Assembly (NCBI GenBank): GCA_963726255.1
Contig: CAVSBL010000002.1
Coordinates: forward strand, 1-64,000
Source: Candidatus Bathyarchaeota archaeon
Lineage (GTDB): Archaea > Thermoproteota > Bathyarchaeia > 40CM-2-53-6
Direction of reading: 5' to 3'
DNA: 64,000 nt
Below the pieces are notes generated by a model, which worked only from the letters and a program-made list of their open reading frames with translations, had not been told where the DNA came from and did not search any database. Positions 20,719 to 44,206 of the stretch are shown one piece after another. A program made the translations under genes and the position numbers. Numbering within the stretch: the stretch's first letter is position 1; every line of letters starts with the position of its first letter.

Positions 20719-20855
20719 GGCTCACTCCACGTCCTGCGACGCAAGCGAAACTAGGCTGAAAAGCTGTCTGGCGTGGGTCGTTCACGAAACTTGATATTTG
20801 ATTCGTTAACCGAGAGTTAACCCTAAATTTCCGTTTCTTAAGGGCTTGCATGAGG

Positions 20856-20948
20856 GTACCGGGGGAGCTGGGTATCCCGGCTGAGAGGACGGCTGACGCC
20901 GTCGACCCCGTGAACCTGATCCGGGTAATGCCGGCGTAGGGAGTGTGC
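20856..20948 (+). promoter_or_regulatory. TPP riboswitch aptamer
   Basis: GGGGAGC...GGCTGAGAG...GACCC..GAACCTGATCCGGGTAATGCCGGCGTAGGGA consensus; lies upstream of a thiamine transporter. Confidence 0.92.
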
Positions 20949-21005
20949 TAAGTGAACTCAAGTTACGCAGACTGTTTCTGCAACCCATCCAGAGCGTTCC
21001 ATGTT

Positions 21006-28226: not shown

Positions 28227-28342
28227 GGGCCGGTAGTTCAGCCTGGTATACCAAGCGTTTGCTGGGCCGAAGAACGTCCGGTTTGCAAGTTCTTCACCAA
28301 GCATCCGGAAGGTCGCGGGTCCAAATCCCGCCCGGTCCACCA
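28227..28342 (+). tRNA. tRNA-Ala(TGC) with 2 introns
   Basis: G3:U70 pair, CCA encoded; introns 28250-28271 (21/22) and 28288-28303 (37/38) with BHB motifs. Confidence 0.9.
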
Positions 28343-30716: not shown

Positions 30717-30831
30717 AGCCCGGTGGTGTAGTGGACAGTTCAAACCCGCAGAAGCATAGAGGGCTTTGGACCCTCCGACGGGAGTTCGAATGGCATTAAG
30801 AAAATGCCCGAGCCTCTCCCCCGGGCTACCA
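30717..30831 (+). tRNA. tRNA-Gln(TTG) with 2 introns
   Basis: AGCCCGG/CCGGGCT-A-CCA, GAGGG-CTTTGGA-CCCTC; introns 30737-30751 (D-loop) and 30791-30814 (59/60). Confidence 0.9.
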
Positions 30832-41891: not shown

Positions 41892-42569
41892 CTAATGAAG
41901 GCGTGTTCCGCACCGGTCGCAGAAGTTTGCGCCAGGCTGGTTGGGAGCGCCGCAGTTAGCGCAGGCGACCGGTCCAAAAGGCGTTGGTTGTGGGGAAGCT
42001 TGTGGGTAGTAGGGTTGTTGGACGCTGGGTTGGGGATAAGGTGATTGAGTTGGAGGCACGTACGGCTGACCTACCGGCGGCGGGACCGGCGGGCGCATCA
42101 CAGCATATCCGCCCGTTCGCCCGAAGAATGCCCGAACGTTTCCCGAATTCAAGTAGACTAGTATGATGAGGTAAAACACGATTGTGCACACTATGCTCGC
42201 AAGGCTCTCGTAAAGCCCACTTCCTTCCACGAAACCTACTGTGATAGTCATGATTCCAAAGATGATTCCTAAGATGATCCCGATGATTGCGCCGATCAGG
42301 GTGAGGGTCCAAGCCCAGCCCTTGCCAGTCCAAAGGCCGTAAGCCATTATGAAAGAAAATATCCCCAAGGCGATGACAACAAAATCCAGCAAGAACAACA
42401 GGGTTACGAGAGCCCCACCGATTAGGGCGCCAGCGAGGACTGCCAAGATGAGCAGTACCGCTCCGATAGTTATGTCTCCGAGACCGCTTAGGATTTGTAG
42501 TATGGTGAGAACGGCTACCCCCACAGGCCGTGGGGGACGGGTCATGTTGGCCGCGTACAACGGATTCAT
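41892..42569 (-). CDS. membrane protein with Pro/Gln linker and zinc ribbon
   Basis: RPVGVAVL, GLWTGKGWAW, CANC...FCDRCG. Confidence 0.8.
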   Translation of the reverse strand: MNPLYAANMTRPPRPVGVAVLTILQILSGLGDITIGAVLLILAVLAGALIGGALVTLLFLLDFVVIALGIFSFIMAYGLWTGKGWAWTLTLIGAIIGIILGIIFGIMTITVGFVEGSGLYESLASIVCTIVFYLIILVYLNSGNVRAFFGRTGGYAVMRPPVPPPVGQPYVPPTQSPYPQPSVQQPYYPQASPQPTPFGPVACANCGAPNQPGANFCDRCGTRLH

Positions 42570-42666
42570 CCTCCTGTCTCAATTGGACTGAAGGGTATTA
42601 TGAAACCTCCGGAAATGCGTTTCCGGCCTTAGCACGCCTACATAGTGCGAGGCTAATAACTTAGAT

Positions 42667-42814
42667 TGGTAGCGGGGGGTGGATGTTCGGGCTTTTCGCC
42701 TTTCGAACCACCGGTTGAGGAGTTTTTTCGACTCAATCTCAGGGTTTCTCGCCAGGATATGAGCCCTCCGCACGGGAAGGTTCTGCGGGTTAAACCTGGC
42801 TACCCCACCCCGCT
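42667..42814 (-). tRNA. initiator tRNA-Met(CAT) with 4 introns
   Basis: A1:U72, three G-C pairs in anticodon stem, CCA; introns 42766-42782 (29/30), 42746-42757 (37/38), 42714-42735 (47/48), 42684-42701 (59/60). Confidence 0.88.
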
Positions 42815-42910
42815 AGCAGGAAACCAAAATCGGGTCGCGGTCTTTTAGGTTTACTTGTGGTTGTCTGACAGGTGTTGGTGTTGTGTTTTGATTGGTGACC
42901 TTCATTGTTT

Positions 42911-44206
42911 CTAGCTTGCTTGGGGGATTTCGTGCACTGAGCCGATGGGGCTTACCAAGATCAGGAGCACAGGGAGCAGGGAGATTAATCCGCCGATGAT
43001 GATGGTCTGCGTAATTCCAAACTCTGTACCGAAGATTCCTCCGATGAAAGCCCCAACTGGCAGCGCTCCCCAGACTATTGCACGCATGGTGGCGTTCATC
43101 CGGCCCTGAAGCCTGTCGGGCACAATCGCCTGACGAAGGCTGATCTGGGTGATATTGTAGATCGTTATTCCAACCCCAGAGACCATCCAGAGCGCCGCTA
43201 ACACTGGTACTGAGGGACCGTACATAGCAAGGGGGATTGCAAGGAGCCCGAAGCCGACAAGAGATAAGGCGGTGGCAAGGGTAGGAGCGAGCCCGAATCT
43301 CTGCCCGATCTTAGGCGCGATGATTGCACCAATCAAAGAACCCACGCTTCCGATTCCGAGTACGACGCCCGCCAATCCAGGGGACAGTCTCAACTCGTTG
43401 TACATGAAGAGAAAGAACACGGCTGAGAAGATGCTGCTTCCGAGATTCAAAGTTGTGGTCGTCGCTGCGAGGCTTCGGAGCCATGGATTGTGAAAGATTA
43501 CTTCAGCGCCTTCCCTGACCTCCCTAACGAAGTTGCGGTCTGCTTTTGAACTGTATGTGTTTTCAGTCTTCTTGATTGAGAAGATGGCTAGGGCGGCGAA
43601 CAACGTGGTGAGTGCGTCCGCTGTGATAGCTATGGCGGCTCCAGTGAGTTGTATGAGGAAACCGGCCAGCGCAGGGCCAGCGATCTGTGAGGTTGATTCG
43701 CTGGTTGTGAGCTTGGAGTTTCCTTCCACTAAATTCTCCCTATCAACCAGCGTTGGTAGATAGGACTGGTATGCGACTTCGAAAAACACAGTGGATATTC
43801 CCATAACCGCGGCAACGGCGAACAAATGGTAGAGGTTGAGTTTGCCTAGGAGGAACGCGATTGGAATTGTTCCAAGGGTGATGACCTGTACAATATTCGC
43901 CAGAACCATCATTGGGCGCCGCGGCCACCTGTCACCCATCACACCCACGAAGACCCCTAGAATCGGAAAGGCAAGGTAGCCCAAGGCGTTTAGAACTCCA
44001 ATATCGAAAGCTCCAGCCTTTAGAGCGAAAATGGCGATAGTCGGCAACGCCAAGTAGGTTATTTGACCTCCAAACCACTCGACAGTTTCGCCAACCCATA
44101 AACGCATGAAATCCCTATGGTGCCACAGCCGTCCTGACAAAGCAAACTTCAAACTAGCATCCTCTTCCATCCCCCAGGACGGTCGCTCTTTTGCCGTGAC
44201 GAACAC
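42911..44206 (-). CDS. MFS transporter
   Basis: About 12 TM helices, GVMGDRWPRR, LQGRMNA. Confidence 0.9.
   Translation of the reverse strand: MFVTAKERPSWGMEEDASLKFALSGRLWHHRDFMRLWVGETVEWFGGQITYLALPTIAIFALKAGAFDIGVLNALGYLAFPILGVFVGVMGDRWPRRPMMVLANIVQVITLGTIPIAFLLGKLNLYHLFAVAAVMGISTVFFEVAYQSYLPTLVDRENLVEGNSKLTTSESTSQIAGPALAGFLIQLTGAAIAITADALTTLFAALAIFSIKKTENTYSSKADRNFVREVREGAEVIFHNPWLRSLAATTTTLNLGSSIFSAVFFLFMYNELRLSPGLAGVVLGIGSVGSLIGAIIAPKIGQRFGLAPTLATALSLVGFGLLAIPLAMYGPSVPVLAALWMVSGVGITIYNITQISLRQAIVPDRLQGRMNATMRAIVWGALPVGAFIGGIFGTEFGITQTIIIGGLISLLPVLLILVSPIGSVHEIPQAS

Follow-up and report, generated by a model that had tools for sequence, protein, structure and literature searches.

An initiator tRNA-Met gene with four predicted introns in a Candidatus Bathyarchaeota genome and its relatives across one archaeal order

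Three introns is the maximum per archaeal tRNA gene given in a 2014 review (PMC4033280), and the same maximum is given for the multiple-intron tRNA genes of the Thermoproteales (Sugahara et al. 2007, 2008, as summarized in PMC4033280 and PMC8450103). In Asgard genomes 92–95% of the tRNA genes are reported to be interrupted (PMC11291895), and an October 2026 preprint (10.64898/2026.10.13.758758) describes individual Asgard tRNA genes interrupted by as many as five intervening sequences. The main text of the preprint mentions neither initiator tRNA nor Bathyarchaeia, and initiator tRNA is likewise absent from the main text of PMC11291895. A full-text literature search on four-intron tRNA genes returned no archaeal case. 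For a three-intron pre-tRNA of the red alga Cyanidioschyzon merolae, it is reported from experiments that the introns are removed stepwise, the one at position 37/38 last (PMC3728597).

The window analyzed here, a whole stretch of 64,000 nucleotides from a Candidatus Bathyarchaeota genome, contains a locus that is very probably a functional, single-copy initiator tRNA-Met gene with four introns whose precursor would be spliced stepwise (table 1); we infer transcription, the splicing itself and its order from the sequence. The assembly consists of five contigs (2.42 Mb, 98.5% complete, 9.3% contamination). The possibility that the gene is an assembly artefact or a contaminant was ruled out by its position on the 2.36-Mb contig and by the full-length orthologues in around 15 congeners. 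Read on the minus strand from 42814 to 42667, the gene opens with AGCGGGG, the 5′ strand of the acceptor stem, and closes with the complementary strand followed by A73 and CCA. The four introns were cut out by coordinates in a script, and the resulting product of 79 nt is called by ARAGORN as tRNA-Met(cat) over positions 1–79. The predicted cloverleaf has an A1:U72 pair, a 4-bp D stem, a 7-nt anticodon loop with CAU, three G:C pairs next to that loop (29–31/39–41), a 5-nt variable loop, a 5-bp T stem, and the CCA end. An A1:U72 pair and three G:C pairs at 29–31/39–41 are the hallmarks of archaeal initiator tRNAs. The preliminary description of this DNA had proposed four introns at 29/30, 37/38, 47/48, and 59/60 on the minus strand, with the initiator hallmarks intact after splicing; the coordinate-based splicing yields a complete tRNA-Met(CAT) and the ARAGORN drawing contains both hallmarks, so both proposals hold. 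The gene looks functional, and its spliced tRNA, as an initiator, would be charged with methionine and used by aIF2. The A-rich box upstream of position 1 is a possible archaeal promoter element; boxes of this kind are present at an equal distance upstream in 5 out of 15 other congeneric copies, and the remaining copies carry a different upstream motif at a varying distance.

Table 1. Features of the initiator tRNA-Met locus, in window coordinates; numbers such as 29/30 are tRNA positions.
Feature	Coordinates	Strand	Description
Initiator tRNA-Met(CAT) gene	42667..42814	minus	148 nt, five exons and four introns, CCA encoded
Exon 1	42783..42814	minus	32 nt; tRNA positions 1–29: 5′ strand of the acceptor stem, D arm, and first part of the anticodon stem
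Intron 1 (29/30)	42766..42782	minus	17 nt; HBh′ type, H = CCGC/GCGG
Exon 2	42758..42765	minus	8-nt micro-exon; positions 30–37, anticodon CAT inside
Intron 2 (37/38, canonical position)	42746..42757	minus	12 nt; relaxed, CTCA/CGAG (3 pairs + A.C)
Exon 3	42736..42745	minus	10 nt; positions 38–47
Intron 3 (47/48, variable loop)	42714..42735	minus	22 nt; strict hBHBh′, H = TGAG/CTCA
Exon 4	42702..42713	minus	12 nt; positions 48–59: T-stem 5′ strand, most of the T-loop
Intron 4 (59/60, T-loop)	42684..42701	minus	18 nt; strict hBHBh′, H = TTCG/CGAA
Exon 5	42667..42683	minus	17 nt; positions 60–76: T-stem 3′ strand, acceptor 3′ strand, A73, CCA
A-rich TATA-like box	42842..42849	minus	29–36 nt upstream of position 1

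The unspliced gene was missed by ARAGORN with the intron mode on or off, which called no tRNA anywhere in the window, and it was missed by Rfam both at the gathering threshold and in a permissive scan of 42500–43000 with E values up to 10. A lncRNA match that Rfam reported within 42500–43000 (E = 6.5) is spurious. Genomes of this kind can therefore seem to lack an initiator tRNA, because the standard tools miss the gene altogether. At the gathering threshold Rfam identified two elements in the whole window and nothing else. One is a full-length match to the TPP riboswitch at 20851–20960 on the plus strand (74.8 bits, E = 6.6e-13), in an archaeal genome. The other is a 113-nt tRNA match at 28227–28339 on the plus strand (46.2 bits) that was missed by ARAGORN and whose length implies at least one intron. 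A tRNA-Gln(TTG)-like gene at 30717–30828 on the plus strand contains two introns, one of 15 nt in the D region and one of 24 nt at 59/60; only a spliced alignment to a compact relative (three mismatches) revealed it, and both ARAGORN and Rfam at the gathering threshold missed it.

Across the whole genome, 17 tRNA genes score above the Rfam cut-off, of which 15 are at least 90 nt long and 16 encode CCA. The single gene among the 17 without an encoded CCA (G000:C2:1442027-1442099, minus strand) has a mismatched 3′ acceptor strand, possibly because of an intron close to its 3′ end. An alignment of the compact tRNAs of two relatives to the genome, which is noisy and partial, identified around nine loci with at most six mismatches and one to three introns each. 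Judged by the small number and the lengths of the genes above the Rfam cut-off and by these loci, the genome is intron-rich overall, and the four introns of the initiator gene are the highest count among the loci compared in this partial comparison.

The splice motifs were scored with the central helix (H) defined as the 4 nt that end 2 nt before each cut, together with the inner helix (h′) and the outer helix (h). A motif was classified as a canonical bulge–helix–bulge (BHB) according to the rule of the Asgard preprint (10.64898/2026.10.13.758758), which combines four central pairs with a flanking helix of at least two pairs. The scores (H, h′, h) for introns 1–4 are (4,2,1), (3,1,4), (4,4,2), and (4,3,5), with a flanking helix of at least two pairs at every intron. 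Introns 1, 3, and 4 are canonical BHBs with all four central pairs. Intron 2 is relaxed: three of its four central positions pair, the remaining one is an A.C mismatch, no inner helix is present, and with an outer helix of 4 bp the motif fits the relaxed hBH class. The four central helices listed in table 1, including the relaxed one, are those that the preliminary description had assigned, and all were reproduced by the scoring. The expectation by chance was assessed over all 3494 possible boundary pairs within the gene. Canonical BHBs account for 20 of these pairs, three of the four true introns are among the 20, and mononucleotide shuffles of the gene contain 8.3 canonical pairs on average. 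The relaxed class of intron 2 is common by chance (454 out of 3494 boundary pairs), and the case for intron 2 is therefore based on comparative evidence and not on its motif. Removal of intron 2 is needed for a mature anticodon loop of 7 nt and is also supported by relatives that lack this intron.

The gene has a match at E ≤ 1e-5 in 70 out of 105 genomes of the order, and 71 gene copies from 69 genomes were parsed against the computed mature sequence. The exons are the same as in the present gene in 55 of the 71 copies and differ by at most five mismatches in the others, and CCA is encoded in 64 out of 71. The number of introns per copy ranges from zero (one copy) through one (six copies), two (12 copies), and three (34 copies) to four (18 copies), and the positions in use are 4/5, 15/16, ~20, 22/23, 29/30, 36/37 or 37/38, 47/48, 59/60, and 71/72. 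Each of the four introns of the present gene is missing in some relative, where the exons are joined exactly as predicted: intron 1 is absent in genus g2 and others; intron 2 in g2 and in families f9 and f3, all three with an uninterrupted anticodon loop; and intron 4 in families f6, f8, and f10 and in genus g25 of family f2. Since every intron is absent from a relative with otherwise the same exons, all junctions are fixed without recourse to a motif.

The most widespread intron in the order is the one at 59/60 (59 out of 71 copies, canonical in 57 of the 59). The intron at 47/48, to which the preliminary description had drawn particular attention, is present as described but is not peculiar to this gene, as its position is the second most widespread in the order (50 out of 71 copies with 47 distinct sequences, canonical in 50 out of 50). 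Of the 41 copies with a 37/38 intron, 15 have four central pairs and 25 have three. Three further arrangements were observed. Introns at 15/16, 37/38, and 47/48 occur together in one genus of the order. In genus g15, which belongs to the same family as the present genome, an acceptor-stem intron at 71/72 (L044, L046-L049, L052, L055, and L056) reduces the 3′ exon to 5 nt, namely position 72, the discriminator, and CCA, with H = CCCC/GGGG in seven out of eight copies, the eighth being mis-parsed. Family f7 has a different four-intron architecture (4/5, 22/23, 37/38, and 59/60) in all four parsed genomes (L064, L070, L071, and L072); its exon 1 is 4 nt long and a conserved 5′ leader supplies the first intron with two central-helix bases and a 5-bp outer helix.

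Within the genus, a BLAST search with the gene identified full-length orthologues in ~14–15 of the 22 other genomes, and the same four introns are present in 14 gene copies from 13 genomes, the present genome included. Two congeners, G002 (L014) and G006 (L015), carry three introns; the 47/48 intron is absent in both and the exons are joined exactly as predicted. As the intron is present in sister genera, this looks like a clean intron loss. The 37/38 intron of G006 is an 11-nt version. Among 13 aligned four-intron genes a total of 34 positions are variable, all of which fall within the 69 intron nucleotides and none within the 79 exon nucleotides (hypergeometric probability 1.6e-14, with positions as the units tested in genomes that are related). 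Exon 1, for example, is unchanged in 13 out of 13 genes, and in intron 1 the GCGG strand is constant while 11 out of 17 positions vary. The strands of the central helices are invariant in the genus, so that these helices are kept in 13 out of 13 congeners, and the changes fall in the inner helices and loops. Pairing in the proposed helices is retained in 97.0% of the cells, compared with 42–47% when the partners are slid by one to three columns. Compensatory changes were found in two inner-helix pairs (e.g., CG in seven, UA in five, and UG in one gene; CG/UA in the inner helix of intron 3); with two pairs and six cells from related, non-independent genomes, this covariation is thin but consistent. 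Judged by this pattern of variation, the gene is under purifying selection, and the combination of invariant exons, variable introns, and helices kept in 13 congeners argues that it is functional.

Several searches of the genome for a second initiator gene were conducted. No other locus in the genome was found to combine the initiator acceptor pair with an intervening tRNA, and a pattern search identified no contiguous initiator anticodon arm anywhere in it. A BLAST search of the gene against its own genome returned elsewhere just three chance matches of 17–19 nt (E = 0.09–3.8), and a blastn-short search with the mature sequence returned 952 short matches that form a collinear cluster of at least 30 nt only at this locus. 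Two other tRNA genes with a CAT anticodon (C2:144266-144372 and C2:1093572-1093675) have a G1:C72 pair and lack the GGG/CCC anticodon stem, the pattern expected of elongator tRNA-Met and tRNA-Ile2 genes, so they are not initiators. The preliminary description had reasoned that, since tRNA-iMet is essential, a sole copy would show four-fold splicing to be functional; the searches of this assembly, estimated at 98.5% completeness, identified no second copy.

Eight of the 22 congeners (G003, G005, G008, G009, G010, G016, G017, and G020) yielded no initiator gene with the pattern and BLAST probes. The anticodon-arm pattern was run on all 22 congeners, the 3′-exon, 5′-exon, and T-arm patterns on G003, G008, G010, G016, and G017, and a BLAST search with the gene of an intron-less relative on G003, G005, G008, G016, and G017. 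When the weak BLAST places in the eight genomes were aligned, the best score was only 44 out of 152. One of the eight, G017, is 96% complete in three contigs. In these congeners the initiator gene may be unassembled, split, or composed of exons too short to detect. Two further matches in the genus were inspected. A second pattern match in G015 falls within an open reading frame and does not represent a tRNA. In G012, a second locus (L145, G012:C438:5955-5981) shows 96% identity to positions 1–27 of the gene, after which the likeness ends, and it could be a 5′ fragment, a half-gene, or a different tRNA whose 5′ part is identical.

These observations bear on the question of whether the locus is a decaying or silent copy, with the working initiator supplied by another gene that is unassembled, encoded as trans-spliced halves, or divided into exons too short to be found. 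The assembly is not closed (five contigs, 98.5% complete) and the eight congeners without a detected gene indicate that hidden forms may exist in the genus. Disrupted initiator genes occur elsewhere in the archaea. In Nanoarchaeum equitans the iMet gene is split. The iMet gene of Thermofilum pendens is permuted (Chan et al. 2011, cited in PMC4090602). However, a decaying copy would not hold 79 out of 79 exon positions across 13 species while 34 out of 69 intron positions change, nor would it retain all four central helices, and neither an exon cluster nor a half-gene was found elsewhere in a genome whose main contig of 2.36 Mb carries the gene. A silent copy is accordingly considered extremely improbable, and the locus is treated below as the working initiator gene. 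One metatranscriptome run (0.20 of the sampled words shared) yielded no contig over 42500–43000, from which nothing follows.

Two EndA paralogues, 188 and 187 amino acids long, match PF01974 with 80.9 and 53.3 bits, respectively; their genes are located in the regions of C2:748279-748530 and C2:1451759-1451998. The first passes the endA equivalog model TIGR00324 (90.9 bits) and aligns to the C-terminal catalytic repeat of the two-repeat enzymes. The second aligns to the N-terminal structural repeat, and its matches to the beta-subunit models are weak and below the cut-offs. On the basis of these alignments the pair would fit a broad-specificity endonuclease of the (alpha-beta)2 type. The ligase RtcB is also present (PF01139, 571 bits). 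Bathyarchaeota and Nitrososphaerota are among the nearest Atlas clusters of EndA and EF-2, and no Asgard cluster is; this is suggestive of a lineage that probably belongs to the Bathyarchaeia.

In the proposed pathway, one precursor transcript of ~150 nt or more would be cut at its four bulge–helix–bulge motifs by a putative two-subunit (alpha-beta)2-type endonuclease, RtcB would join the five exons, and the ends would be trimmed, the CCA being already encoded. The splicing is proposed to be stepwise because the four motifs and the cloverleaf cannot all coexist. The central helix of intron 1 uses positions 24–27 and borrows two D-stem bases, and that of intron 3 uses positions 42–45 and with them two anticodon-stem pairs. 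The sole outer helix of intron 2 is the anticodon stem, whose 5′ strand is split by intron 1 and whose 3′ strand overlaps the helix of intron 3. The outer helix of intron 4 is the 5-bp T stem, so that this intron could be cut at any time. The most plausible order on these grounds would be the removal of introns 3 and 4 first, followed by intron 1, with intron 2 at the canonical position last, and the cutting of one intron at a time would keep the micro-exons of 8–12 nt from falling off.

All 15 splicing states were folded with ViennaRNA at 37 C. The BHBs of introns 3 and 4 are part of the minimum free energy structure of the full precursor (ddG 0, with helix probabilities of 0.64 and 0.86), and the motif of intron 1 costs 4.7 kcal/mol. 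The motif of intron 2 costs 4.4–6.6 kcal/mol, its central helix has a probability of 0.00 in all eight states that contain the intron, and it becomes no easier to form once intron 1 is removed (6.1 vs. 6.5 kcal/mol). As the folding model shows no gain for intron 2, the proposed order is based mainly on geometry and on analogy: a late removal of intron 2 would match the late removal of the 37/38 intron in C. merolae.

The same folding result, in which the removal of the other introns brings intron 2 no clear advantage, would also suit a functional gene whose four introns are excised independently of one another and in variable order. EndA would then capture BHB folds as they form transiently, and the enzyme itself or other proteins would hold the exons. 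Archaeal EndA is reported to recognize local BHB motifs without the mature domain (PMC4090602), and the outer introns of the three-intron pre-tRNA of C. merolae are removed in either order (PMC3728597). Introns 1 and 2 share motif bases, however, in that the outer helix of intron 2 includes the 3′ bulge of intron 1, and the anticodon stem that intron 2 needs is overlapped by the central helix of intron 3. Furthermore, simultaneous cutting of the introns on both sides would leave exon 2, with its 8 nt, attached through two G:C pairs only. Independent cutting is thus regarded as possible but rather unlikely, and stepwise splicing remains the preferred pathway.

Intron 2 differs from the other three introns in its conservation, with 2 out of 12 positions varying in the genus compared with 32 out of 57 in the others (Fisher p = 0.023). 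Six of its bases form a perfect complement to the D-loop, and this pairing is predicted with a probability of 0.96–0.97 in the precursor (ViennaRNA). A 6-nt complement to some exon is found in ~7% of random 12-mers, and covariation between intron 2 and the D-loop cannot be tested because the D-loop is invariant; for these two reasons the pairing is a lead and not a finding.

The unusual conservation and the D-loop complement, together with a central helix of three pairs out of four, the missing inner helix, and the predicted motif probability of 0.00, might suggest that the insert at 37/38 differs from ordinary BHB introns and is removed by a variant route, such as recognition of its conserved sequence or of the D-loop pairing. 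Against this, relaxed hBH motifs at 37/38 are described as known substrates of (alpha-beta)2 endonucleases (PMC4090602, PMC4033280), 25 of the 41 copies of the 37/38 intron across the order likewise have three of four pairs, and the chance frequency and lack of covariation of the complement apply here as well. A variant route is therefore judged unlikely, and intron 2 is best read as a relaxed-motif intron that would be cut by the same endonuclease. A distinctly unlikely idea is that intron 2 acts as a folding guide: by pairing with the D-loop it would prevent closure of the D arm and allow the 29/30 motif to form, and by staying uncut until last it would impose the order of splicing. If this were true, an intron of an essential tRNA would be kept by selection for a role in processing.

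Taken as a whole, the order encodes the same invariant mature tRNA with zero to four introns at nine or more positions, and its four-intron initiator genes come in two different architectures. The order-wide set is a ready system for the study of tRNA intron gain and loss and of the motifs that suffice for splicing, which makes it the more useful result. The single gene is of interest in its own right. All protein synthesis in the organism would depend on a sole initiator tRNA that has to undergo four cut-and-join events, with a shortest exon of 8 nt, which puts the limits of archaeal tRNA splicing to a stringent natural test.

Among the known systems, the gene resembles the multiple-intron tRNA genes described for the Thermoproteales in its short introns, predicted to be protein-spliced, at canonical and noncanonical positions, its mixture of strict and relaxed BHB motifs, its putative two-subunit endonuclease, and its invisibility to standard tRNA finders; it differs from them in having four introns instead of a maximum of three and in belonging to a different lineage. 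With the Asgard genes it shares the presence of many introns in one gene at noncanonical positions, including the variable region and the T arm, whereas the Asgard reports, in their main texts, cover Asgard families only, and the present host lineage is neither Asgard nor Thermoproteales. The dependence of an essential single initiator tRNA on the BHB splicing machinery is shared with the permuted iMet gene reported for T. pendens and the split iMet gene of N. equitans, unlike which the present gene is colinear with four introns in cis. The nuclear tRNA genes of C. merolae also place several BHB introns in one pre-tRNA, but the case described there is that of a eukaryote, with three introns in a tRNA that is not the initiator (PMC3728597), compared with an archaeal initiator with four introns here. 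The four introns are thus one above the long-quoted maximum for archaeal tRNA genes, involve a known mechanism, and fall within the range described in the Asgard preprint.
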